Shown here piece after piece: positions 6,950-19,835 of a stretch of DNA of 64,000 nucleotides (position 1 is the stretch's first letter; each line of letters starts with the position of its first letter). This stretch comes from Candidatus Latescibacterota bacterium (GTDB taxonomy: Bacteria > Latescibacterota > UBA2968 > UBA8231). The DNA is taken from contig CBDETY010000003.1 of NCBI GenBank assembly GCA_965243025.1, positions 160,001-224,000 on the forward strand, given 5' to 3'. Made by a program: the position numbers and the translations under genes. The notes beneath the pieces were generated by a model. That model did not search any database. It had not been told where the DNA came from and worked only from the letters and a program-made list of their open reading frames with translations.

Positions 6950-7489
6950 TTATCCCCCCATACCCGGTCGCGCGCCGGCAAGGGCGGCATCGGCGGGAAG
7001 GACCTGCCCGGCGTTTTCGGGGGTTGCCACAGGGGCTGAACTCAGCCGTGCGGACATCAACTCGCTCATCTCCCGGGCGGAAGGGGCGGCGAGAAGGAGG
7101 TGGACGAAGTCGCTGTCCCCGAAGGCCCCGGCGAGGAGGGAGAGGAGGCCGAGGTAGGGGCGCGGCGAGTCCATCGGCACGGCGATCACGCAGACCGCAC
7201 GCACCGCGCAGAGGTCGTCGCCGCTCGGGTAGTAGATCGGCTCGTCGCACACACCCAGGGCCATCCCCAGGCCGGTGACGCTGCGGGCGCGGGCATGAGG
7301 AAGAGCGATGGTGCCGCCTATCACGGTGCTGCCCAGGTTCTCCCGTTCGAGAACCAGCTGCAAGAAACTGAGGCTGTCGTTGAGCCGTCCGGCGCGGTAG
7401 AGGCGGTCGACGAGCTGTTTGATGGCGCCGATCTTGGAGTCGGAACGGAGACGGGGGACCATCATGGTCTGTTCGAGCAGACCGGACAT
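6950..7489 (-). CDS. PTS EIIA domain protein (PtsN/fructose-mannitol type); start could be 7561
   Basis: RENLGSTVIGGTIALPHAR with the phospho-acceptor His. Confidence 0.85.
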   Translation of the reverse strand: MSGLLEQTMMVPRLRSDSKIGAIKQLVDRLYRAGRLNDSLSFLQLVLERENLGSTVIGGTIALPHARARSVTGLGMALGVCDEPIYYPSGDDLCAVRAVCVIAVPMDSPRPYLGLLSLLAGAFGDSDFVHLLLAAPSAREMSELMSARLSSAPVATPENAGQVLPADAALAGARPGMGG

Positions 7490-7780
7490 GGCGGGAAAGG
7501 CCCCGGGAGGGTTGCCTGCTGCAAAATCTGCGTCGCTGTCCGCGGCGTCGCGGAAAATCATCGTAACTGGTTGTTTATTCTTGCTTAATGAAAATCGGAC
7601 AGCAGGGGTTGGCGGGCTGCATTAATTGCACGGTATCGAGAAGAGTCGGGGCAATGACCTTAACAATGTTGGCGGGCCCAACTCCCGGTGAGATTCCGTG
7701 GCCCGAGGCGGGGAATCGCGGTGGTTTTCGGAATTCCGGGCGGGCAGTTGCCGGCGCAACCCCCGGCCGCCAACGATCTA

Positions 7781-7934: not shown

Positions 7935-9326
7935 TCAGGTCAGCTTGTACTGCTTGAGCTTGTACTGCAGGGAGCGCACGCTGATTCCCAGCATCGCGGC
8001 GGCCTCGCGGCGGTTCGAGGTCACCCGCTGCAGCGTCTGCCGGATCAACTCCGCTTCCACGTCCTCGATGGAGGAGCCGAGGGAGATGGTGAACTCCCCG
8101 ATTCCCGCACCCGGCTGGTCGATCGCCGCCTCCCCCAGGGCCTCGCGCAGGTGCCGGGGCTCGATGGTGTTCTCGGGGCAGGTGATCACCAGGCGCTGAA
8201 TGATGTTGCGCAGCTCGCGCACGTTACCCGGCCAGTGGTAGGAGACGAAGAGGTCGACGGCCTCCCTGCCGATCTTCTTGCGGGGCTGGTCGTAGGCCCG
8301 GCAGGCCTCGTCGAAGAAGGTCTCGACGAGCAGCGGGATGTCCTCGCGCCGCTCTCTCAGGGGGGGGACGTCGATGGGCACGACGTTGAGGCGGTAGAAG
8401 AGATCCTCGCGGAACTCCCCCTCGCTGACCGCGGTTTCGAGGTGGCGGTTGGTGGCGGCGATGACGCGCACGTCCGCCTTGTGGACCCTGGTGTCGCCGA
8501 GCGGCTGGAACTCGCGGTTCTCGAGGGCGCGCAGCAGCTCGACCTGGTTCTTCAGCGGGATCTCGCCCACTTCGTCGAGGAACAGGGTGCCCTTCTCGGC
8601 CAGGGCGAAGCGGCCGGCCCGGTCGACGTGGGCCCCGGTGAAGGCGCCGCGCTTGTGGCCGAACAGCTCGCTGCCGAACAGGTCCTGGGTGAAGCCGCCG
8701 CAGTTGACGGGAACGAAAGGCCCCTCCTTCCGGCGGCTGCGCTCGTGGATGGTGCGCGCGATCAGCTCCTTGCCGGCCCCGGTCTCCCCCCTGATCAGCA
8801 CCGGAACGTCGGACAGGGCCACCTGCTTGACGGTGCGCGTCGCCTGCTGCATGGAAGCGCTGCGGCGCACGATGCGCCGGAACGGGTCGTCGCTGTCGCC
8901 GCGGCCGAGGCGGTCGTGCAGCTCCCGGTTCTCGCGCACGAGCCGGACCCGGTCGAGGGCGCGGTTGACGATGAGGCGGACGTGGGTCAGGTCGACGGGC
9001 TTGGTGACGAAATCGAAGGCCCCCTTCTTCATCGCCTCGACCGCGGTATCGACGCTGCCGTGCGCGGTGAGGATGACGACGTTCGATTCGGGGTGGCGCT
9101 CGCGGATTTCCTCGAGCAGGTCCATTCCCGAGACACCCGGCATGCGCAGGTCGAGGAGGATGACGTCGAAGGCTCCCTTGCGCAGCCGGCGGCGCACCTC
9201 CCGGGCGTCGGAGGCGGTCTGGAGGTCGAGACCCGGCTCCTGCAGGGCGTCCTGCAGCCCTTCGCGGATGAAGACCTCGTCATCGGCGATGAGGAGGCGC
9301 GCCCGCGAGCTGCCGTGGTCTTTCAT
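7935..9326 (-). CDS. Sigma-54-dependent response regulator (NtrC/AtoC family: REC-AAA+-Fis HTH)
   Basis: Receiver domain (IADDE, LLDLRMPG), GETGAGKE, GAFTGA, FLDEVGE, WPGNVREL, C-terminal HTH. Confidence 0.95.
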   Translation of the reverse strand: MKDHGSSRARLLIADDEVFIREGLQDALQEPGLDLQTASDAREVRRRLRKGAFDVILLDLRMPGVSGMDLLEEIRERHPESNVVILTAHGSVDTAVEAMKKGAFDFVTKPVDLTHVRLIVNRALDRVRLVRENRELHDRLGRGDSDDPFRRIVRRSASMQQATRTVKQVALSDVPVLIRGETGAGKELIARTIHERSRRKEGPFVPVNCGGFTQDLFGSELFGHKRGAFTGAHVDRAGRFALAEKGTLFLDEVGEIPLKNQVELLRALENREFQPLGDTRVHKADVRVIAATNRHLETAVSEGEFREDLFYRLNVVPIDVPPLRERREDIPLLVETFFDEACRAYDQPRKKIGREAVDLFVSYHWPGNVRELRNIIQRLVITCPENTIEPRHLREALGEAAIDQPGAGIGEFTISLGSSIEDVEAELIRQTLQRVTSNRREAAAMLGISVRSLQYKLKQYKLT

Positions 9327-10105
9327 GTTTGCCGGTTTTCCGAAGGAACGGCGAGGGGAAGGCGAACGGACACCGTGGTTCCCGCTCCCTCCTCGCTCTC
9401 CACTTCAAGGCTGCCCTGGTGCTGGTCGATGATCCGTTGGGCGATGGAGAGCCCCAGTCCGGTGCCCGTGTCCTTCGTAGTATAGTAGTACTCGAAGATC
9501 CTCTCCAGGTCGCCGGGAGGGATGCCGCAACCCCGGTCGCCGATGGTCACCAGGGCGCTGCGGTCGTCCGCGGCCCCCAGGCGGATCTCGACGAGCGCGC
9601 CGCTGCCGCGGGGCTCACCGCCGGCCTCGCCGCAGGCCTGCATGGCGTTGATCAGGAGGTTGAGGAACGCCTGGCTCAGCAGGTTCTCGTCGGCGTCGAT
9701 GACCGCGGCCGGCTCCCCGTCCCCGCCGTGAAACTCCAGGGCGATTCCGCGCTCCCGCGCTTCCGGCTCGATCAGTTCGCGGAGGCGGGCAAGCAGCTCG
9801 GAGAGCGATACCCGCGCCAGGTGCAGCGCCGGCGGCCGCGAGAAGCGCAGGAAGTTCTGCACGATCCGGTCGAGCCGGCGCAGCTCGGCGCGCGCCGTGT
9901 CGAGCCGTTCGCCGGCGCGCTCGCCGGAGCCGGCCCGCAGCTCCTCCTGCAGCAGCTGCAGCTGGATGTCGATCGCTCCGAGGGGATTGCGGACCTCGTG
10001 CGCGACCGAGGCGGCGAGGCGGCCGAGGGCCGCCATCCTGTCGCCGAGCAGGATCTCCCGCTCGCTGCGCCGCTCTCCTTCTTCCCGCCCGCCGGTTTCG
10101 CTCAT
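9323..10105 (-). CDS. Histidine kinase core (HisKA + HATPase) with no sensor domain
   Basis: AHEVRNPL H-box, NLLINA N-box, DRGCGI, GTGLGL; overlaps the regulator start by 4 nt. Confidence 0.88.
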   Translation of the reverse strand: MSETGGREEGERRSEREILLGDRMAALGRLAASVAHEVRNPLGAIDIQLQLLQEELRAGSGERAGERLDTARAELRRLDRIVQNFLRFSRPPALHLARVSLSELLARLRELIEPEARERGIALEFHGGDGEPAAVIDADENLLSQAFLNLLINAMQACGEAGGEPRGSGALVEIRLGAADDRSALVTIGDRGCGIPPGDLERIFEYYYTTKDTGTGLGLSIAQRIIDQHQGSLEVESEEGAGTTVSVRLPLAVPSENRQT

Positions 10106-10133
10106 TGACAGGTTTTCCGCCGCGGGATAGGGT
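10105..10133 (+). promoter_or_regulatory. Putative sigma-70 promoter of menG
   Basis: TTGACA-17 nt-TAGGGT. Confidence 0.45.
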
Positions 10134-10157
10134 TGCCGCGCGGCTCGGTTCAACAGG

Positions 10158-10895
10158 TTGAAAGGGGTGGTCTTGGCTGACGATACGGAATCGGTACGGG
10201 CTCGCAAGCAGCGCATTCAGCAGATGTTCAACGCCATCGCCGGGCGCTACGACCTGCTCAACCACCTGCTGAGCGGCGGCGTCGACTTCTACTGGCGCCG
10301 CCGGGCCCTGGCTTCGGTGCGCCGCCGCGGCCCCGGCCGCGTCCTCGACCTCGCCACCGGCACCGGGGATTTCGCGCGCGCCGCCGGCCGCCTCGCCCCC
10401 GGCCGCGTCGTCGGGGTGGACGTCGCCATCGACATGGTCCGCATCGCCCGTGCCAAGCTCGGGGACGCCCCCGGGGGCAGAGGCCCGGACCTGTTGGCGG
10501 GGGACGCGGAGATGCTGCCCTTCCGGGACCGCAGCTTCGACCTCGTCACCGTCGCCTTCGGGGCGCGCAACTTCGGCAGCGTCGGCGCCGGCCTCGCCGA
10601 GGCGGAGCGCGTCCTCAGATCCGGAGGGGAGGTGATCGTCCTCGAGTTCACCGAACCGACCCTGCCGGGGTTCCGCCAGCTCTACGGCTTCTACTTCCAC
10701 CGCGTCCTGCCGCTCGTCGGGGGGCTGATCTCCGGAAACAGGGAGGCCTACTCCTACCTGCCGCGCTCGGTAGGCCGCTTCCCGCAGGGGAAGGAGTTCC
10801 TCGAGTTGATGGAAGCGGCCGGGTTCACCGGCACCAGGGCGACCCCCCTGACATTCGGTATCTGCGCCGTCTACGAGGGCCGCAAGTCCGATTGA
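10158..10895 (+). CDS. menG: Demethylmenaquinone methyltransferase (UbiE/MenG); exact start uncertain
   Basis: MFNAIAGRYDLLNHLLSGG, VLDLATGTGD, AFGARN, AYSYLP; adjacent to the mqn genes. Confidence 0.9.
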   Translation: MKGVVLADDTESVRARKQRIQQMFNAIAGRYDLLNHLLSGGVDFYWRRRALASVRRRGPGRVLDLATGTGDFARAAGRLAPGRVVGVDVAIDMVRIARAKLGDAPGGRGPDLLAGDAEMLPFRDRSFDLVTVAFGARNFGSVGAGLAEAERVLRSGGEVIVLEFTEPTLPGFRQLYGFYFHRVLPLVGGLISGNREAYSYLPRSVGRFPQGKEFLELMEAAGFTGTRATPLTFGICAVYEGRKSD

Positions 10896-11031: not shown

Positions 11032-12156
11032 TTGAGCTTCGAGGCAGCAGTCGCCGCCGCCGGACTGGCGGAAATTCACCGCAAGGTCGTCGAGGGTGAG
11101 CGCCTGACCATCGACGACGGCGTCGGGCTGTACGCCTGCGACGACCTTCCCGTCCTCGCCTGGCTCGCCAACACGGTGCGCGAGCGCCTGCACGGCGAGG
11201 CGACCTACTACGTGCGCAACCAGCACGTCAACTACACCAACATCTGCAACAAGCTGTGCAAGTTCTGCTCCTTCTACGTGACCCCGAAGGACGAGCGCGG
11301 CTACGTCCTGCGGCCGGAGCAGGCCGCCGAACGGGTGCGGGAGTACGCCGACGCCCCGATCACCGAGATCCACATGGTCGGCGGGGTCAACCCCAAGCTG
11401 CCGTACGAGTACTACCTCGACCTGCTGCGGGCGATGAAGGAGGCGAGGCCGGAGGCCCACCTCAAGGCGTTCACGATGATCGAGCTGGCGCAGATCCAGC
11501 GCATCGCAAAGCGCCCTCTCGAAGAAGTGCTCGCCGACCTCAGGGAGGCCGGGCTCGAATCGATACCGGGAGGGGGCGCCGAGGTCTTCAGCGACCGCGT
11601 CCACGAGGACCTCTTCTGGACCAAGTCCGACAGCGAGGACTGGCTGCGCATCGCCGCCGCCGCCCACCGGGCCGGGTTGCCGACCAACGCCACCATGCTC
11701 TACGGCCACGTCGAGAACCCCGGGGAGAAGGCCTACCACATGGCGCGTCTCCGCGACCTCCAGGAGGAGACCGGGGGGTTCCTCGCCTACATACCGCTCT
11801 CCTTCCATCCCGAGCGCACCGCCATCGACCACCTCCCGGGACCTTCGGGGGCCCTCGATCTCAAGGAGATCGCCGTCGGCCGCCTGATGCTCGACAACTT
11901 CCCGCACATCAAGACCTTCTGGATCATGAACACCATCGAGATCTCGCAGGTCGCCCTGTGGTACGGGGCCAACGACATCGACGGCACGGTGATGGACTAC
12001 GAGATCACGCGGCGCAGCTTCGAGGAGACGCAGCAGCGCCTGTCGCGGCAGGAGCTGCTCGACCGCATCGCCGAGGCCGGCCGCGAGCCGGTCGAAAGGG
12101 ACAGCCTCTACAACGTCGTCGAACCGGCGGCGGAGACGGTCGAGGCGGCCGGGTAA
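11032..12156 (+). CDS. mqnE: Aminofutalosine synthase (radical SAM)
   Basis: NYTNICNKLCKFC, EIHMVGG, PGGGAEVF, NATMLYGHVE, HIKTFWIM. Confidence 0.88.
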   Translation: MSFEAAVAAAGLAEIHRKVVEGERLTIDDGVGLYACDDLPVLAWLANTVRERLHGEATYYVRNQHVNYTNICNKLCKFCSFYVTPKDERGYVLRPEQAAERVREYADAPITEIHMVGGVNPKLPYEYYLDLLRAMKEARPEAHLKAFTMIELAQIQRIAKRPLEEVLADLREAGLESIPGGGAEVFSDRVHEDLFWTKSDSEDWLRIAAAAHRAGLPTNATMLYGHVENPGEKAYHMARLRDLQEETGGFLAYIPLSFHPERTAIDHLPGPSGALDLKEIAVGRLMLDNFPHIKTFWIMNTIEISQVALWYGANDIDGTVMDYEITRRSFEETQQRLSRQELLDRIAEAGREPVERDSLYNVVEPAAETVEAAG

Positions 12157-12161
12157 CCCGC

Positions 12162-13325
12162 GTGTCCGCGATAGCCGACATCTCGGAAAGGGTCTTTTCG
12201 GGGGAGCGCCTCGGCAGCAAAGACGCCCTGCGCCTGTTCGCCCACCCCGACCTCGCCGAGCTAGGCATCCTGGCGAACCGGGTCAGGATGGAGAAGCACC
12301 CCGAGCCGGTGGTCACCTACAACGTCGGCCGCAACATCAACTACACCAACGTCTGCTGGGTCCGGTGCGACTTCTGCGCCTTCTACCGGCCCCCGGGGTC
12401 CGACGAGGGGTACGTGCTCCCGAACGAGCAGATCTTCGCCAAGATCGACGAGCTCGTCGCCTTCGGCGGGGCCGAGCCGAAGTCCTGCGAGATCCTGATG
12501 CAGGGGGGGCTCAACCCCAGGCTGAAGCTCGGCTACTACGAGGAGCTGCTCTCCGAGATCCGCGACCGCTACCCGATGGTGCAGCTCCACTGCCTGTCGG
12601 CGACGGAGATCATCTACATCGCCCACATTTCGCGGCTCTCCCTCGGGGAGACCATAACGCGGCTGCGCGCCGCCGGGCTCGACTCGATTCCCGGCGCCGG
12701 CGCCGAGATCCTCGACGACGGCGTGCGCGACGTCATCGGCTTCCGCAAGGACCGCAGCGACGAGTGGCTCGAGGTGCACCGGATCGCCCACGGCCTCGGC
12801 ATGCGCACCACGGCGACGATGATGTACGGCCACGTCGAGACCGTCGAGCACCGCGTCGAGCACCTGGAGAAGATCCGCGACCTGCAGGACGAGACCGGGG
12901 GGTTCACCGCCTTCATCGCCTGGAGCTTCCAGCCGGACGAGACCGCGCTCGGGGCCGACCCCGGGCGCTGGGACGGGGTCAGGGCGACCGGGTTCGACCA
13001 CCTGCGGACGGTGGCGGTGGCGCGCCTGTTCCTCGACAACGTCGACAGCCTCCAGGCCTCGTGGGTGACCCAGGGGCCCAAGATCGCCCAGGTCAGCCTG
13101 CGCTACGGCGTCAACGACTTCGGCAGCACCATGCTCGAGGAGAACGTCGTCAGCGCCGCGGGCACGAGTCACACCAACGAGATGGACCTGCCGGCCATGG
13201 AGCGGCTGATCCGCGACGCCGGGTACCGGCCGCAGCGGCGCAACACCCGCTACGAGTGCGTCGCCACCCCCGCGGTGCCGCAGGCCGCGGCTGCCGCCGC
13301 GGAGCCGGTCCCCGCGGCTCCATGA
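12162..13325 (+). CDS. mqnC: Cyclic dehypoxanthine futalosine synthase (radical SAM)
   Basis: RNINYTNVCWVRCDFC, ILMQGG, QASWVTQG, DFGSTMLEENVV; GTG start 5 nt after the mqnE stop. Confidence 0.9.
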   Translation: MSAIADISERVFSGERLGSKDALRLFAHPDLAELGILANRVRMEKHPEPVVTYNVGRNINYTNVCWVRCDFCAFYRPPGSDEGYVLPNEQIFAKIDELVAFGGAEPKSCEILMQGGLNPRLKLGYYEELLSEIRDRYPMVQLHCLSATEIIYIAHISRLSLGETITRLRAAGLDSIPGAGAEILDDGVRDVIGFRKDRSDEWLEVHRIAHGLGMRTTATMMYGHVETVEHRVEHLEKIRDLQDETGGFTAFIAWSFQPDETALGADPGRWDGVRATGFDHLRTVAVARLFLDNVDSLQASWVTQGPKIAQVSLRYGVNDFGSTMLEENVVSAAGTSHTNEMDLPAMERLIRDAGYRPQRRNTRYECVATPAVPQAAAAAAEPVPAAP

Positions 13326-13442: not shown

Positions 13443-14339
13443 ATGCCCCCGCCCCTGCAGAGCCAGCCCCCCCACAGGCCGCGGGTGCGCCTCGGGGCGG
13501 TGAGCTTCCTCAACTCGAGGCCGCTGACCGCCGCCCTCGAGGACTGCCTCGACGAAGGCCCCTTCTCTCTCGTGTACGACCTGCCGTCGGCCTGCTCCCG
13601 CGGCCTGCGCGCCGGCCGCATCGACCTCGGGTTCGTGCCCACCATCGAATACGCTCTCAGCCCGGTGCCGTACGCGCTCGTCCCCGGCGTCGCCGTCGGC
13701 TGCCGGGGGGAGGTGCTGACGGTGCGCCTGTTCTTCCGCGGCGACCTCGCAGCGGTCCGCACCGTCGCCGTCGACACCAGCTCGCAGACCTCCGTCGTCC
13801 TGCTGCGCATCCTGCTGGCGGAGAAGTACGGCCTGCATCCGGCGTTCGAGCAGGCTGCCCCCGACCTCGACGAAATGCTGCACGGCGCCGACGCCGCCCT
13901 GCTGATCGGCGATCCGGTGCTGCCGCTGCTCGACGGCGGCAACGGCCCGAAACGGACGCGCCGCAGCCTCGACCTCGGCCGCGAGTGGGCCGACCTCACC
14001 GGGCTTCCGTTCGTGTTCGCCTGCTGGGCCGGCAGGGAAGGGGCCCTCGACCCGCGGCAGGCGCGCTGTCTCGTCGAGGCGCAGCGCCGGGGACAGGCGG
14101 AAATCCCGCGGATCGCGCGCCGCTTCCAGCGCGAGCGCGGCGGCCGGGTCGAGCTCTACGAGCGCTACCTGCGCCAGCATGTCTCCTACGATTTCGGGGA
14201 GGCCGAGCTTGCCGGAATGCGCGAGTTCTTCCGGCTGGCCCACCTGCACGGGGAGATCGACCGGGTGCCGGAGCTGCGCTTCTTTCAGGTAGCGGGGCGC
14301 GGAAAGACGGCCCCGGCCGCCGCTACCCGGGACCAGTGA
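13443..14339 (+). CDS. mqnA: Chorismate dehydratase (futalosine pathway)
   Basis: GAVSFLNSRPL, SSQTSV, LLIGD, DLGREW...TGLPFVFA. Confidence 0.88.
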   Translation: MPPPLQSQPPHRPRVRLGAVSFLNSRPLTAALEDCLDEGPFSLVYDLPSACSRGLRAGRIDLGFVPTIEYALSPVPYALVPGVAVGCRGEVLTVRLFFRGDLAAVRTVAVDTSSQTSVVLLRILLAEKYGLHPAFEQAAPDLDEMLHGADAALLIGDPVLPLLDGGNGPKRTRRSLDLGREWADLTGLPFVFACWAGREGALDPRQARCLVEAQRRGQAEIPRIARRFQRERGGRVELYERYLRQHVSYDFGEAELAGMREFFRLAHLHGEIDRVPELRFFQVAGRGKTAPAAATRDQ

Positions 14340-14345
14340 CAGCCG

Positions 14346-15236
14346 ATGTCCCTGTTCGCCCAGGTGCGGCTGTACGGCCGCATGATCAGGTTCTCGCACA
14401 GCATCTTCGCGTTGCCGTTCGCCCTGAGCGGGGCCGCCCTGGCCGCGGCGACCTCCGGCTTCTCCTGGAGCCAGGCCGGCTGGATCGTCGTCGCCATGGT
14501 CGCGGCCCGCAGCGCCGCCATGGGGTTCAACCGCGTCGCCGACCGCGACATCGACGCCGCCAATCCCCGCACCCGCAACCGCGAGCTGCCGAGCGGGGCG
14601 ATGTCCGTCGCTTCCGCCGCCCTCTTCGTCGCCGTCTCCTCGGCGCTCCTGGCCGCGGCGGCGTACAACCTCAACCCGCTCTGCTTCGCGCTCTCGCCGG
14701 TGGCCCTGGCCGTCGTCTTCTTCTACTCCTGGACCAAGCGCTTCACCTGGCTCTCCCACCTCGTGCTCGGCATCTGTCTCGCCCTCGCCCCGGTGGGGGC
14801 CTGGATCGCCGTGACCGGGGGCATCGCGCTGCCCCCCCTGGTTCTCGGCCTCGCCGTGCTCTTCTGGGTGGCGGGGTTCGACATCCTCTACGCCTGCCAG
14901 GACCGGGACTTCGACCGCGACAGCGGCCTGCACTCGATCCCGGTGCGCTTCGGCCTGGCCGGGGCTCTCAACATCGCCCGGGGACTTCACGGCCTCGCCG
15001 TTCTCTCAATGCTCGCCCTCGGCGCCCTGATGCCGCTCGGATTGCTCTACGTCGCCGGGGTGGCGGTGATAGCCGGGCTGCTGTTCCACGAGCACCGGCT
15101 GGTGCGGCCCGGCGACCTGACCAAGGTCAACACCGCCTTCATGACCATGAACAGCATCGTCAGCGTCGTCTTCTTCCTCTTCACCCTGGCCGATCTCCTG
15201 CTTTTGGGGGAGTGGCCGGGACTGAAAACGGTGTGA
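14346..15236 (+). CDS. UbiA-family prenyltransferase (MqnP-like)
   Basis: [38 protein letters not shown]; multiple TM segments. Confidence 0.88.
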
Positions 15237-15243
15237 TCAATCC

Positions 15244-17283
15244 ATGACGCGAAACGGCAACGGACAACCCCCTGGTTTTGAGCAGATCGTCTTCGAGCAG
15301 ATCGTCGAGGTCCCCTCCCGGGAGGACGTATTCGAGGTGCGTACCCGGGCCCCGGGTCCGGAGGGCCGGCTGCCCCTGCAGATCGAGCAGGTGACCGGCT
15401 CCCCGAGCGGCGACATCTTCGCCTACAGCCAGAACGCCGGCATGGGCTGGAACCCCTCGGAGCTGGGGCGCAGCGAGTTCCTCATCATCAGCACCATGGG
15501 GGGGATCCGGGCCCCTGACGGTTCCCCGGTCGCCCTCGGGTACCACACCGGCCACTGGGAGGTGGGGCTGCTGATGGAGGCGGCCGCCGGCGAGATCCGG
15601 CGGCTGGGGGGGATCCCGTTCGCCGCCTACTGCTCCGACCCCTGCGACGGCCGCACCCAGGGGACGGCGGGAATGTTCGACAGCCTGCCGTACCGCAACG
15701 ACGCCGCCATGGTGATGAGGCGCCTGATCCGCTCGCTGCCGACCCGCCGCGGCGTCATTGGCGTCGGCACCTGCGACAAGGGGCTGCCGGCGGTGCTGAT
15801 CGCCCTCGCGGGCACCCGCGACCTTCCGGTGGCGGTGATTCCCGGGGGCGTCACCCTGCCCCCGGAGCAAGGGGAGGACGCCGGCAAGATCCAGTCGGTC
15901 GGGGTGCGCCTCGCCCACGGCGAGATCACCATCGACGAGGTCAACGACTACGGCTGCCGGGCCTGCGCCACGGCCGGGGGCGGCTGCCAGTTCCTCGGCA
16001 CCGCGGCGACCTCGCAGGTAGTCGCCGAGGCGCTCGGCCTGACCGTGCCGCACGCCGCCCTCGCCCCTTCCGGGGAACCGGTCTGGTACGACATGGCGAC
16101 GCGCACGGCGCGGGCGATGACGGCCATGGAGAGCGCCGGGATCGCCTCGCGGGACCTGCTGACCGACGCGGCGTTCCACAACGCCATGGTCACCCACGCC
16201 GCCTTCGGCGGCTCGACCAACCTGATCCTGCACGTGCCGGCGATCGCCTACGCGGCCGGGCGCCGGCGCCCCGCGGTCGAGGACTGGGACCGCCTCAACC
16301 GCCAGGTGCCCCGTCTCGTCGACGTGCTGCCCAATGGGCCGCAGTACCACCCGACCGTGCGCGCCTTCCTCGCCGGAGGGGTGCCGGAGGTGATGCTGCA
16401 CCTGCGCGCCCTCGGCCTGCTCGAGGAAGGGGCCCTGACCGCGACCGGAAAGCCGCTCGGGGAGAACCTCGACTGGTGGGAGGGCAGCGAGCGCCGGGCC
16501 CGCTTCAGGGAGGTGCTGCGCTCCGCCGACGGCGTCGACCCGGACGAAGTCATCATGTCGCCCGAAGCGGCCCGCGCCAAGGGCCTGACCAGCACCGTCT
16601 GCTTCCCCCGCGGCAACCTCGCGCCCCAGGGATCGGTGGTGAAGAGCACGGCCATCGACCCGGCCGTGCTCGACGGCGACGGTTTCTACCGGCACACCGG
16701 TCCGGCGAAGATCTTCACCACCGAGCGCGCCGCGGTCGCCGCCCTCAAGGCGCAGCGGATAGAGGCGGGGGACGTGATGGTGCTGCTGAGCTGCGGCCCC
16801 CTCGGCACCGGCATGGAGGAGATCGCCCAGGTCACCACGGCCCTGAAGTACCTCGATTTCGGAAACCGGGTGGCGGTGCTGACCGACGCCCGTTTCTCCG
16901 GGTTCTCGACCGGGGCCTGCGCCGGCCACATAGGGCCCGAGGCCCTCGGGGGCGGACCGCTCGGCAAGCTGCGGGACGGGGACCTGGTCGGCATCGAGAT
17001 CGACACCCGCGGCCTGCGCGGCCGCCTCGACCTCGTCGGAGAGGCCGGCCTGCAGTTCGGACCGGAGCGCGGAGAAGAGGTGCTGAAGCAGCGGCCTCCG
17101 CGCCCCGACCTGGCGGCCGAGGCGGAGCTGCCTGACGACACGCGGCTGTGGGCGGCGCTGCAGGACGTCGGCGGCGGCACCTGGGGGGGCTGCGTGTACG
17201 ACGTCGACGCCATCATCGAAACCCTGCAGGCCGGTTCCGCGAACCGGAAGGGGGCGGGGGAGCCGCCGGGGCGTGTCAGATGA
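15244..17283 (+). CDS. YjhG/YagF-family (IlvD/Edd) sugar-acid dehydratase, D-xylonate dehydratase-like
   Basis: [62 protein letters not shown]. Confidence 0.88.
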
Positions 17284-17894
17284 GTGAAACGAAGAGAATC
17301 GCCGTAGCCGTCACCGGGGCCAGCGGCGGCATCTACGCCGCCCGTTTCCTGCGCGCCCTGCTGCAGGGGGGCCACGAAGCCCACCTGGTCCTGTCCCGGT
17401 ACGGGCGCTACATCCTCTGCGAGGAGATGGGCCTGGAGCCGGACAAGGAGTCGGTGCAGGAGTTTCTAGGCAGACTGTACGGGGACGAGGTTTCAGCCGG
17501 CACCCTGGTCGAGTACGGCGCCAACGACCTCACCGCGGCGCTCGCCAGCGGCTCGGTGGCGATGGACGGGATGGTGGTGATCCCCTGCTCGGCCAAAACC
17601 TTCGCCGCCATCGCCTGCGGCTCCTCCAGCAACCTGATCGAACGGGCGGCGGACGTCGCCCTGAAGGAACGGCGGCCGCTGATCCTGGTGCCGCGCGAGA
17701 CCCCGCTGAACCTGATCCAGCTGCGCAACCTGACGGCCCTTGCCGAAGCCGGCGCCGCCGTGGTCCCCGCCATGCCCGCCTTCTACCAGAAGCCGCGGTC
17801 GTTCGACGATCTCGCCGACTTCATGGCCGGACGCGTGCTCAACCTGCTGGGAATCCGGCAGGAGCTGTTTCCCGCCTGGCGCGAGGAATCGTAG
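17280..17894 (+). CDS. ubiX: Flavin prenyltransferase
   Basis: [37 protein letters not shown]. Confidence 0.92.
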
Positions 17895-17895
17895 G

Positions 17896-18000
17896 AAAAA
17901 AAAGCGGGACCCGAAGGCTCCATCTGCGAGAGGAGTTGCAGACGGATGCGAAGGGGAGTCTCTGCCTTCGGATCCCGAACCGCAGGGAGGATGGATCTGC
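17896..18000 (-). ncRNA. Candidate sigma-54-dependent small RNA with three CU-rich anti-SD segments and an intrinsic terminator
   Basis: Exact sigma-54 promoter immediately upstream; 5' hairpin; 14-bp and 9-bp stems whose imperfect pairs are G-U only on this strand; ends in U8. Confidence 0.7.
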
Positions 18001-18009
18001 GTTCCCCGA

Positions 18010-18025
18010 GGCAAACGGCGTGCCA
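18010..18025 (-). promoter_or_regulatory. Sigma-54 (-24/-12) promoter
   Basis: Minus strand TGGCACGCCGTTTGCC = TGGCAC-N5-TTGC; predicted +1 near 18000. Confidence 0.78.
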
Positions 18026-18558
18026 GTCCCCGAAGTGAGGAGTTCCGCGACGGTTTCGGGGAAGACGGGCCTCCTTGTTTCGGGGAGGACTTCCCGGATC
18101 TGGGGGCGAGCGGCGGGAGAGGCCCCGTATATGGTGGATGTGGGAAAATCGCCGACAGAAGGTTGTCCGGGCGGGGTGGGAAAGATGTTCCGCCGGGAAA
18201 CGAAATGCTTTCCCCTGGTGGGCCGGGACTCAGGGCGGAACCGGGGACCCGTTTACAGGACTCAGATTGATTCTCAACTCTCGGCTCGGACGTTCCGGAA
18301 GCGGGGGGGCTCTTCGCCGGTATAACTGCTCAAGTCCGGGGGCGGCGGGTCCCGCGCCACACCCCTCGCGCCTTCCCGGCCCCGCCGATGCGAAAGGGCG
18401 TTCCGGGCGCGGTGAGGGTTCCCGTCGGTGAAACAGTTTCGTGAAGTCGGGCCCAGGGCCGCGATTGCGTCCGAAACCTTTCGGCCTGTTTCGCTGCCCG
18501 CCAGGGTAGTTGAGCGTTCCCGGGGTTCAGGCCCGCAGAACAGCGGAATGTCCCTGAT

Positions 18559-19608
18559 TCATCGCGGCCCCGGCTTGCGGTACCACTCGGAGAGGACGGC
18601 CTCCGCCGGCTTTCCGCGCGGGGTGAACCCGGGGTGGGAGGCGCCGCCCCGGTCGAGGTCGCTGAACCACTTCCACCAGTACATCCCGGAAAACCAGGGC
18701 TTGTCCCAAAAGACCCGCAGCACCGCCTCGTAGCATCGGGCCTGGGCCTCGGGGTCGATTTCCGGCTCGAACCGGCGCGGCCACTGCCAGGGCCGCATGC
18801 TCGTGCCCCGGGTGCTCTTGAACCCGACCTCGGTGAACAGCACCGGTTTGCCGGTGCGCTGGTGCAGCAGCGCCAGCTCCCCGGCGACCGAATCGGCTTT
18901 GGCGAACAGCGTCTCCGCCGAGGGGTCGGGGACGTCGCTCAACGGGAAGAAGGCGTTGACGCCGATGTAGTCGAGGGCGTCCCAGAAACCGATGCGGTCG
19001 TATTCCTCCCACCAGTTGGCCGCGTACACCAGGGGCCCGCGGTAGCGCTTGCGGATTTCGGCGACGAGGTCGCGCCAGTCCTGCTCGCGCTCGATGGCGG
19101 TGCGCGCCAGCTCCACCCCGATGCAGAAGATCTCGACGCCTTCGGTTTCAGCGAGGGCGGCGTAATGGAGGAGGAATTTACCGTAGCTGCGGAACCAGGC
19201 TTCCCAGTCCTCCTCGCTGTTCATGGCGATCGTCCCCCGCCAGCGCTCGGCGCTCTGGTGGTGGAGCCAGACGTGAGGTTTGAGAATCACCTTGAAGCCG
19301 AGCTCGCGGGCGCCGGCGATCGCCTGGCGCAGGTGAGCGTCGGGAGGGTCCCCTCCGAACAGGACGTTCGGGTCGTCGACGTCCCGCTGGTACCCGAACG
19401 GGTTGAGGGCGATCCACTCGGCCCCGACCCGCGAGCGCAGGTGTTCGAGCGACCGCCGGGACCGCTCCGACAGGAGGTTGTTGTGGGGGCGGTACAGGTG
19501 CGTGTAGGTGACCCCCTTCTGCCATTCCCGCGCCGGGCTGTCGCCGGCGTCCGCCGGCGTCGGTCCCGGGGCCGGGAACAGCAGAAGAAGGAGGGAAACC
19601 GCCGTCAT
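18559..19608 (-). CDS. Secreted glycoside hydrolase family 113-like TIM-barrel protein
   Basis: Signal peptide; VILKPHVW, IGVEL, YAANW, GVNAFFPL, FTEVGF, YWWKW. Confidence 0.75.
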   Translation of the reverse strand: MTAVSLLLLLFPAPGPTPADAGDSPAREWQKGVTYTHLYRPHNNLLSERSRRSLEHLRSRVGAEWIALNPFGYQRDVDDPNVLFGGDPPDAHLRQAIAGARELGFKVILKPHVWLHHQSAERWRGTIAMNSEEDWEAWFRSYGKFLLHYAALAETEGVEIFCIGVELARTAIEREQDWRDLVAEIRKRYRGPLVYAANWWEEYDRIGFWDALDYIGVNAFFPLSDVPDPSAETLFAKADSVAGELALLHQRTGKPVLFTEVGFKSTRGTSMRPWQWPRRFEPEIDPEAQARCYEAVLRVFWDKPWFSGMYWWKWFSDLDRGGASHPGFTPRGKPAEAVLSEWYRKPGPR

Positions 19609-19835
19609 GGCAGTGGAGTGCCGGCGGCTGAGGACCACGTTCACCTGCGGCCTTTGTGTTATGCAGTTGCCGGCGGAAGCAGGGTTGGCGCAATCAACCG
19701 CCGCCCCGGATCGCGCCGTGGAACGGAGTTCCAATCGGGCCGCCGCATGGTGCAGCGTCCCACGGATAACTTGGAAAACCCCGCCGCAGACGGGATGGAT
19801 CGCCGGAATCGGCAAGGGATTCCTGGGACGCCATA

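Follow-up and report, generated by a model that had tools for sequence, protein, structure and literature searches.

The closest described counterparts of the RNA treated here are the CcsR or cuckoo RNAs of the Alphaproteobacteria (Rfam ar14, RF02344; including NfeR1), which the available text of the sources presents as modular small RNAs (sRNAs) with CU-rich loops of anti-Shine-Dalgarno (anti-SD) type and a variable number of modules (PMC4615179, PMC8034643). As far as these texts extend, CcsR RNAs are co-transcribed with the small protein CcaF1 from a promoter of an alternative sigma factor (RpoHI/HII) and lie, depending on the lineage, in the 5' untranslated region (5' UTR), in the 3' UTR or, flanking the open reading frame (ORF), in both (PMC4615179, PMC8034643). 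In the same available portions, cuckoo RNAs are defined by 2-4 adjacent hairpins with CCUCCUCCC in each loop (PMC4615179), and a gene for a small DUF1127 protein is given as a conserved neighbour (PMC8034643). Equally, 6C of Mycobacterium tuberculosis (PMC6486639) and sX13 of Xanthomonas (PMC3771888) are characterised, in the accessible parts of these papers, as short stable stem-loops whose C-rich loops pair with G-rich sites of several mRNAs, with 6C acting without RNA chaperones (PMC6486639). The locus addressed here lies in a stretch of 64,000 nucleotides (the window) of a Candidatus Latescibacterota bacterium (assembly GCA_965243025.1, contig CBDETY010000003.1, positions 160,001 to 224,000), in which the minus strand is predicted to encode an sRNA of about 105 nt with three CU-rich segments, preceded by a sigma-54 promoter.

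Control by sigma-54 is established for other sRNAs, namely Qrr1-5 (LuxO), GlmY (GlrR), CrcZ (CbrB) and NrsZ (NtrC), with LuxO and sigma-54 reportedly the subject of Lilley and Bassler; all of these RNAs are proteobacterial, depend on Hfq or on CsrA/Crc where applicable and use seed types different from those of the window RNA. To our knowledge, neither 6C nor sX13 is driven by sigma-54. Equally, a regulatory RNA domain and a small ORF share one transcript in SgrS/SgrT, in RNAIII/hld and in 5'-UTR-derived sRNAs, where loss of the ORF with retention of the RNA is possible. The RNA of the window resembles Qrr, GlmY, CrcZ and NrsZ in that an sRNA under a -24/-12 promoter whose activator is a bacterial enhancer-binding protein (bEBP) would, by analogy, be the output of a signalling pathway, and none of them matched the window RNA or 16 homologous loci in the Rfam scans. 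It differs from SgrS/SgrT and RNAIII/hld in that the RNA domain stands 5' of two ORFs where these occur and in that an ORF-less state arose several times in one family. From 6C and sX13 it is set apart by the lack of any sequence relation or Rfam match and by loops that are CU-mixed (CUCCUC) rather than C-runs. SisA-D of Caulobacter, a functional analogue, form in the available text a multi-copy sibling family for which a link to sigma-54 is not mentioned (PMC12559287), whereas the window RNA is single-copy and shares no sequence relation with them.

That the window harbours a real structured RNA driven by sigma-54 is very likely. The features of the promoter and the RNA are the following, with coordinates counted in the window.

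18025-18011, minus strand: sigma-54 (-24/-12) promoter, exact match TGGCACGCCGTTTGC of the type TGGCAC-N5-TTGC
18000-17896, minus strand: predicted sRNA of about 105 nt, from fold and promoter geometry, with a putative start (+1) at 17999-18001, 11-12 nt past the -12 GC
18000-17982, minus strand: 5' hairpin with a 4-bp GCAG/CUGC stem and the 11-nt loop AUCCAUCCUCC
17977-17964, minus strand: 5' strand of the outer stem P1, CGGGAUCCGAAGGC, from the fold, with compensatory changes at 11 of the 14 P1 pairs in an alignment of 38 sequences
17963-17947, minus strand: junction strand with CUCCCC (17958-17953), from the fold, with a C-rich motif of the CUCCCC/CCCUCC type kept in the alignment
17946-17919, minus strand: P2 hairpin with a 9-bp stem and the 10-nt loop AACUCCUCUC (17928-17937)
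17918-17905, minus strand: 3' strand of P1, GCCUUCGGGUCCCG, from fold and covariation
17903-17896, minus strand: U8 tract, preceded by C at 17904 and forming with P1 a 3' end like that of an intrinsic terminator

The 5' end of the RNA is derived from the promoter geometry, and the 3' end and size are likewise predictions. Among the sequencing runs listed for the locus, four from one study contain it, all of them DNA. The 105-nt RNA reaches a minimum free energy of -45.2 kcal/mol (z = -4.67), with none of 200 shuffled sequences folding equally well, and adopts a 5' hairpin followed by a 14-bp P1 that encloses the 9-bp P2 hairpin, then C and U8. For the plus strand the fold is weaker (-43.3, z = -3.09). 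The three CU-rich segments CCUCC (17990-17986), CUCCCC (17958-17953) and CUCCUC (17935-17930) are predicted to be unpaired with probabilities of 1.00, 0.88 and 1.00, respectively. The G+C-rich 14-bp P1, followed after a single C by U8, has the layout of an intrinsic terminator, and the U-tract after P1 extends over U8-U10 across three species of the window's genus (U9-U10 in the two sister species); a transcript terminated there would be about 105 nt long and end 2 nt short of the stop codon (17892-17894) of the convergent gene ubiX. A free-standing transcript is likely for the window's genus. A first-pass annotation, made by a model from the sequence alone, had put forward this fold ending in U8, which was reproduced by folding 18000-17896, and three CU-rich unpaired loops, of which all three are indeed predicted to be unpaired and the middle one turned out not to be a hairpin loop but to form a junction strand within P1. 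Its argument for the orientation, that the imperfect pair of each long stem is G-U on the minus strand and A-C on the other, holds as well, with exactly one G-U pair in each long stem and an excess of G-U over A-C among the relatives as detailed below.

Within the 6.8-Mb genome the element is single-copy, which rules out the dispersed repeat that had been named beforehand as a reading to be excluded. A BLAST search against 61 related genomes yielded 11 homologues beyond the window's own genome. A covariance model, built on a core alignment of 13 sequences with the promoter excluded, subsequently found one copy each in 38 of the 76 genomes of the window's family, representing 16 of its 18 genera; the 56 genomes from the class's three other families and 87 genomes sampled from 13 other families of the phylum gave no hit. 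In genus g14, only 4 of 31 genomes carry the RNA. Divergent copies in genomes without a match were sought beside ubiX in four complete g14 genomes and one g11 genome with filters switched off, and discarded, as the best hit reached 12.4 bits (E = 0.23). A pattern scan of named genomes gave 8 stretches, titled Candidatus Latescibacterota (3), uncultured Gemmatimonadaceae (2), uncultured bacterium (2) and Solirubrobacteraceae (1), the last being a chance match that misses the rest of the structure. Rfam, proposed at the outset as the check on novelty, returned no match above threshold for the window (at E <= 10) or for 16 homologous loci (at E <= 0.1), with only ar14 below threshold, and a literature search on Latescibacterota and on this combination of features retrieved no sRNA described for the phylum. 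Judged by sequence comparison, the element represents a new RNA family whose functional kind is known, and its distribution is confined to a single family of bacteria labelled Latescibacterota.

The homologous loci were compared in a main alignment (A4) of 38 core sequences made with MAFFT and not fitted to the structure, while an alignment from the model search (A3) held reverse-strand and partial matches and was excluded from the counts. In A4 the structure is 90.3% paired, with both sides changed in 16 of the 23 pairs (85 cells); none of 500 shuffles matches any of the five measures, and sliding the 3' partners lowers the pairing to 31-46%. The earlier 13-sequence set was 96% paired with double changes in 8 of the 23 pairs. 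The covariation among relatives suggested as a check at the start is hence present together with conserved loops. G-U occupies 75 cells compared with 25 for A-C, favouring the minus strand. CUCCUC of the P2 loop was detected by script in 36 of the 38 loci, the loop columns of A4 are invariant or nearly so, and four pairs of the P2 stem hardly vary. Within the window's genus, identity amounts to 84-93% in the RNA and 88% in ubiX compared with 52-72% in the 100 nt 5' of the promoter. The 5' part of the RNA is more plastic: most genera have about 20 nt, whereas g3 has about 5 nt and g13 about 115 nt, the last including a further P2-like hairpin that bears a CUCCUC loop of its own. In the 23 loci with the promoter at -43 to -54, the putative start is mostly CAGAC at the same distance from the promoter, and most of these loci possess a weak 5' hairpin with a UCCUC-type loop, which g3 lacks and g9 has in a different form. 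This comparison strongly supports a structured RNA that is real and strand-specific.

The promoter TGGCACGCCGTTTGC displays GG at -24 and GC at -12 in 10-nt spacing, and 10 bases separate it from the predicted first base of the RNA at 18000, near which bEBP-dependent transcription would start. On both strands of the genome the exact motif TGGCAC-N5-TTGC occurs 22 times, compared with 4, 8, 4 and 4 occurrences for the control spacers N4, N6, N7 and N3. The genome encodes one rpoN (a single Sigma54_DBD match, E = 1.1e-59) and gives 20 strong Sigma54_activat (bEBP) matches, three of them within the window. When relatives were scanned for [TG]GG[CT]A-N6-[TA]TGC, all 38 homologous loci showed a -24/-12 element 31-151 nt 5' of the RNA core; the covariance model contains no promoter columns, so this conservation is independent of the model. 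Apart from these RNA-linked promoters, only 9 more matches to the pattern exist in the 223,726 nt of all loci on both strands. The promoter begins with TGGCA in 34 of the 38 loci, and four g16 loci carry TGGTAC or GGGCAC. The first-pass annotation had thus been right about an exact minus-strand sigma-54 promoter at 18025-18011, as reading the sequence confirms, and about three bEBPs in the window, and the promoter conservation it had asked for is found throughout. Sigma-54 control of the RNA gene appears strongly supported by comparison.

Measured against the cuckoo RNAs, the locus shares the association of a CU-loop RNA with small ORFs, here located 3' of the RNA, and g16 adds three hairpins 3' of the first ORF as in CcsR/CcaF1 loci. 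On the other hand, the window RNA scores 18.7 bits (E = 1) on RF02344 against a gathering score of 58.8, and the best of 16 loci reaches 30.6 bits against the same threshold, on the 3' hairpins of a g16 locus (L070) and not on the core. The 9-mer CCUCCUCCC is found in none of the 38 loci between the predicted transcription start site and 300 nt past the core; P2 is nested inside P1 instead of standing beside it as an adjacent hairpin; the promoter is of the sigma-54 and not of the RpoHI/HII type; none of the 16 first and 11 second ORFs matches DUF1127 at E <= 1, with the window lacking such an ORF; and the host belongs to a different phylum, with no Hfq found. As every tested defining feature fails, the RNA is at best functionally analogous to cuckoo RNAs and not a member.

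The small proteins that accompany the RNA in relatives illuminate its origin. ORF1, encoded on the same strand 20-83 nt past P1 in 16 of the 38 loci, specifies 33-71 amino acids with one hydrophobic helix and an N-terminus of the RxR-MYLL type. It is without a Pfam or PDB match and has 28 relatives in a database of 5.8 billion proteins, all unnamed or 'hypothetical' and, where a lineage is given, titled Candidatus Latescibacterota. ORF2 follows ORF1 in 11 of the 38 loci and encodes a basic, arginine-rich protein of 46-68 amino acids with the pattern LRWY..QL..LP.DSR.RL...G.LPS.R.W, for which neither a Pfam family nor a matching PDB chain was found. Examples are given below; both ORFs are undetectable in the window's genome, with best E values of 0.45 (ORF1) and 0.076 (ORF2).

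L049:1596-1799, plus strand, and L070:1307-1477, minus strand: ORF1, present in 14 other loci and absent from the window
L049:1854-2027, plus strand, and L064:1807-2010, plus strand: ORF2, present in 9 other loci and absent from the window

In g16, three tandem CU-loop hairpins with loops such as UCCCNCUCCCC stand 3' of ORF1 and end in a strong terminator. Tandem hairpins of the UCCCNCUCCCC(GGGUA) type after ORF1 or the core are seen in L070:1167-1296 (minus strand), similarly in L071-L073 and L080, and singly in L078, L082, L062 and L063. A run of at least five T directly after P1 occurs in 7 of the 22 loci without ORF1 (8-10 in the window's genus) and in none of the 16 loci with ORF1. A UbiX tree of 32 rows, from which two loci with a partial ubiX and four without a ubiX match were dropped, is a single-gene tree without an outgroup; in it the ORF state takes 5 changes, at least 4 of which are forced by well-supported branches, and ORF-bearing rows occur on both sides of the midpoint. 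As a homologous ORF cannot arise repeatedly, the most likely course on this one gene tree without outgroup is that the two-ORF operon was ancestral and disappeared on several occasions, with the RNA retained. Since the RNA is the 5' part of a small-protein mRNA in many sister genera, the stand-alone sRNA of the window's genus most likely represents a derived state. The RNA would accordingly share its ancestry with the 5' leader of an operon that sigma-54 drives and that encodes two small proteins, an origin supported by comparison, and the window's genus would have lost both ORFs, kept the RNA and come to possess a strong terminator.

With respect to function, the best reading, and one with reasonable prospects of being correct, is that of a stand-alone sRNA which depends on sigma-54 and uses its exposed CU-rich loops for pairing. 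Kept unpaired by a rigid framework, CCUCC, CUCCCC and CUCCUC would base-pair with several mRNAs at ribosome-binding sites of the GGAG type or at other G-rich positions and thereby block the initiation of translation without Hfq. In 4171 crude ORFs of the host genome, GGAG-type 4-mers before the ORF starts peak at -13 to -10 and are present in 28.9% compared with 12.7-13.4% in control windows; the host genome therefore uses Shine-Dalgarno (SD) sites. The seed segments hence combine predicted single-strandedness, conservation and complementarity to ribosome-binding sites that the host uses. Hfq, CsrA and ProQ were not found in this 96%-complete genome, which fits, by analogy, the strong G-C pairing of C-rich loops in chaperone-independent systems. 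As leads to targets, an 11-nt perfect match to the P2 loop lies 9-19 nt ahead of the GTG of an ABC permease gene, and CUCCCCUUC / GAAGGGGAG precede a TonB-dependent receptor gene. A trans-acting anti-SD mechanism is the best available reading of these data, unproven and evenly poised between right and wrong.

Several observations weigh against this interpretation. The conserved seeds comprise just 5-6 nt of generic anti-SD sequence, and the target scan is noisy in a GC-rich genome. The RNA is missing from 38 of the 76 family genomes, including 27 of the 31 of g14, and is therefore dispensable. Neither a cognate bEBP nor an upstream activator site was identified in the analyses described below. 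A simple terminator scan gave no call for P1 and U8, because P1 encloses a large loop and the scan is limited to loops of 3-8 nt; the 47-nt interior closed by P1 is itself unusual for an intrinsic terminator. Finally, in ORF-bearing relatives there is little or no U-tract between the RNA and ORF1, and the RNA is a leader there (16 of the 38 loci), so that a purely cis-acting role in the ancestor is possible.

Instead of pairing with mRNAs, the CU-rich loops might bind a protein, the RNA acting as a sponge or partner such as CsrB for CsrA or CcsR for CcaF1. A candidate for the RNA-binding partner of the CU-loop RNA in relatives is the basic protein of the co-transcribed ORF2, while in the window's genus another protein would be required. 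The CU-rich modules vary from 2 to about 6 per transcript, as is typical of titrating RNAs, with the extra P2-like hairpin of g13 and the three in tandem behind ORF1 of g16 among them; not pairing alone but also sequence is conserved in the P2 stem, four of whose pairs barely vary; and the ORF2 product is small, arginine-rich and predicted to be always co-transcribed. For the alphaproteobacterial pair, binding of CcsR by CcaF1 is stated in the available text (PMC8034643). The window's genome, however, keeps the RNA without ORF1 and ORF2, CsrA, Hfq and ProQ were not found in it, and ORF2 has no Pfam or PDB match. Equally, binding of CCUCC loops is not known to us for any bacterial protein. A protein-binding role is consequently considered unlikely.

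Alternatively, the structure might act in cis only, as a leader that controls translation or stability of the small-protein mRNA, and persist in the window's genus as an orphaned, functionless remnant. The position of ORF1 20-83 nt after P1 in 16 of the 38 loci with weak or absent U-tracts, the possibility that the CU-rich loops mask the SD site of ORF1 itself and the outright loss of the RNA in half of the family would agree with such a role. Masking in cis of the ORF1 ribosome-binding site was examined by folding 15 leaders with the start of ORF1 and rejected, as the folds, computed without pseudoknots, give no consistent pairing of the SD site (mean probability of being unpaired 0.18-0.79). 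The RNA and its promoter are moreover retained in at least four independent ORF-less lineages, the identity of the RNA within the genus (84-93%) stands against 52-72% upstream of the promoter, and U8-U10 directly after P1 was gained in the window's genus, which together make a leader without any further role rather improbable.

An antisense or terminator element for ubiX, in which the transcript or hairpin would target the ubiX mRNA at its 3' end or just terminate the neighbouring genes, is highly improbable: although ubiX is convergent and downstream in 34 of the 38 loci, the plus strand folds well too (-43.3, z = -3.09) and 2 nt separate the end of the U-tract from the stop codon of ubiX, so that any ubiX 3' UTR is fully complementary to the sRNA, the plus-strand hairpin is preceded by A8 without a T-run after it and is therefore not a ubiX terminator, the G-U pairs favour the minus strand (75 versus 25), a terminator would need neither a conserved dedicated sigma-54 promoter nor invariant loops, the GH113 glycoside hydrolase gene stops 534 nt before the promoter, and a distance of 365-810 nt separates ubiX from the RNA core where ORFs are present.

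Coming back to the stand-alone, loop-pairing sRNA, a broader proposition can be formulated, which is tentative and somewhat doubtful. An uncultured lineage of the FCB (Fibrobacterota-Chlorobiota-Bacteroidota) group might have independently evolved the CcaF1-CcsR design, a sigma-54 operon with small proteins flanked by modules with anti-SD loops that would serve as a signal-dependent brake on strongly SD-led mRNAs, and might have converted the leader into a terminated free sRNA at least four times in one family.

The nearest candidate for the activator of the RNA promoter is the following gene pair.

7935-9326 and 9323-10216, minus strand: NtrC-type response regulator/bEBP and histidine kinase, from Pfam, nearest pair and candidate activator

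In 6 of 6 genomes compared (4 genera), a bEBP is encoded on the strand of the RNA, 8-9.5 kb downstream of it, a synteny that may merely reflect conserved gene order. By eye, no upstream site shared between the RNA promoter and the nearest bEBP-linked promoter (7796-7782) was seen. A k-mer search upstream of the promoter in relatives delivered conserved blocks, one of which resembles a bidirectional terminator.

Additional observations concern sigma-54 promoters and their surroundings. Just downstream of the histidine kinase/NtrC-type pair, a second exact sigma-54 promoter, TGGCACCGAGTTTGC (7796-7782, minus strand), leads via a leader of about 210 nt to a PTS (phosphotransferase system) EIIA-2 (PtsN-like) gene (6950-7561, minus strand), and a TGCAA-N3-TTGCA palindrome is located about 115 nt upstream of TGGCACCGAGTTTGC. 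Several of the 22 exact genomic promoters adjoin bEBP genes, and contig C3 of genome G000 contains identical 15-nt sigma-54 promoters in three pairs (3304388/3308288, 5448862/5451999 and 6020231/4265643). At 18030-18090 (minus strand), just 5' of the RNA promoter, the motif YCCCCGAAAC is present in two direct copies and one inverted copy in the window's genus; only one copy is common to the three species of the genus, and in g8 the motif sits within the transcript. Conserved blocks are found 60-220 nt 5' of the promoter in most relatives (L057:1248-1367; about 18100-18210 in the window), consisting of TTTTTCCC, CCACATCTTGTGG, CTATATACGC/CAACATAA and an A-tract with a 6-bp palindrome and a T-tract. 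In L057, the first and the last block were called terminator-like, the last one (A-tract, palindrome and T-tract) on both strands, and of the whole set the window retains just the middle blocks in recognisable form. These blocks may mark the terminator of GH113, another tiny transcription unit or activator sites.

The RNA gene is situated between two protein-coding genes.

17148-17894, plus strand: UbiX-type flavoprotein gene (ubiX), convergent to the RNA, Pfam PF02441, E = 2e-42
18559-19815, minus strand: GH113 glycoside hydrolase gene, upstream on the same strand, Pfam PF22612, E = 6.4e-63

The gap between the two genes, estimated at about 660 bp on first inspection, measures 664 bp. While the convergent ubiX is the common downstream neighbour, a GH113 match by tblastn upstream of the RNA was obtained in 13 of the 38 loci. 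A hidden protein-coding gene was considered and rejected, as the three ORFs that overlap the RNA (17493-18014 on the minus strand, 17740-18270 and 17936-18325 on the plus strand) are without a Pfam match and substitutions follow the stems, not codons. The listed ubiX ORF begins 48 codons ahead of the Flavoprotein domain, and the true start is therefore probably later. With ubiX, a menaquinone cluster of the futalosine route comprises an mqnA-like gene (13443-14339), UbiA (14346-15236), a radical-SAM MqnC-like gene (11256-13325) and an IlvD/Edd-family dehydratase (15244-17283).

The element would be the first candidate sRNA for Latescibacterota, a phylum known almost solely from metagenomes, and the strength of its covariation suffices for databases to recognise it as a new RNA family. 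A family-wide sRNA with a conserved sigma-54 promoter offers a testable entry into an unknown pathway that would lead from a sensor kinase via a bEBP and an RNA to translation. Equally, the loci with and without the two small ORFs document repeated transitions between mRNA leader and stand-alone sRNA, and the likeness to the CcsR/CcaF1 loci suggests that the coupling of an RNA with anti-SD loops to a small protein is a recurrent solution. If true, an independent design of the CcaF1-CcsR type with at least four conversions would constitute a natural series of the birth of sRNA genes from 5' UTRs.

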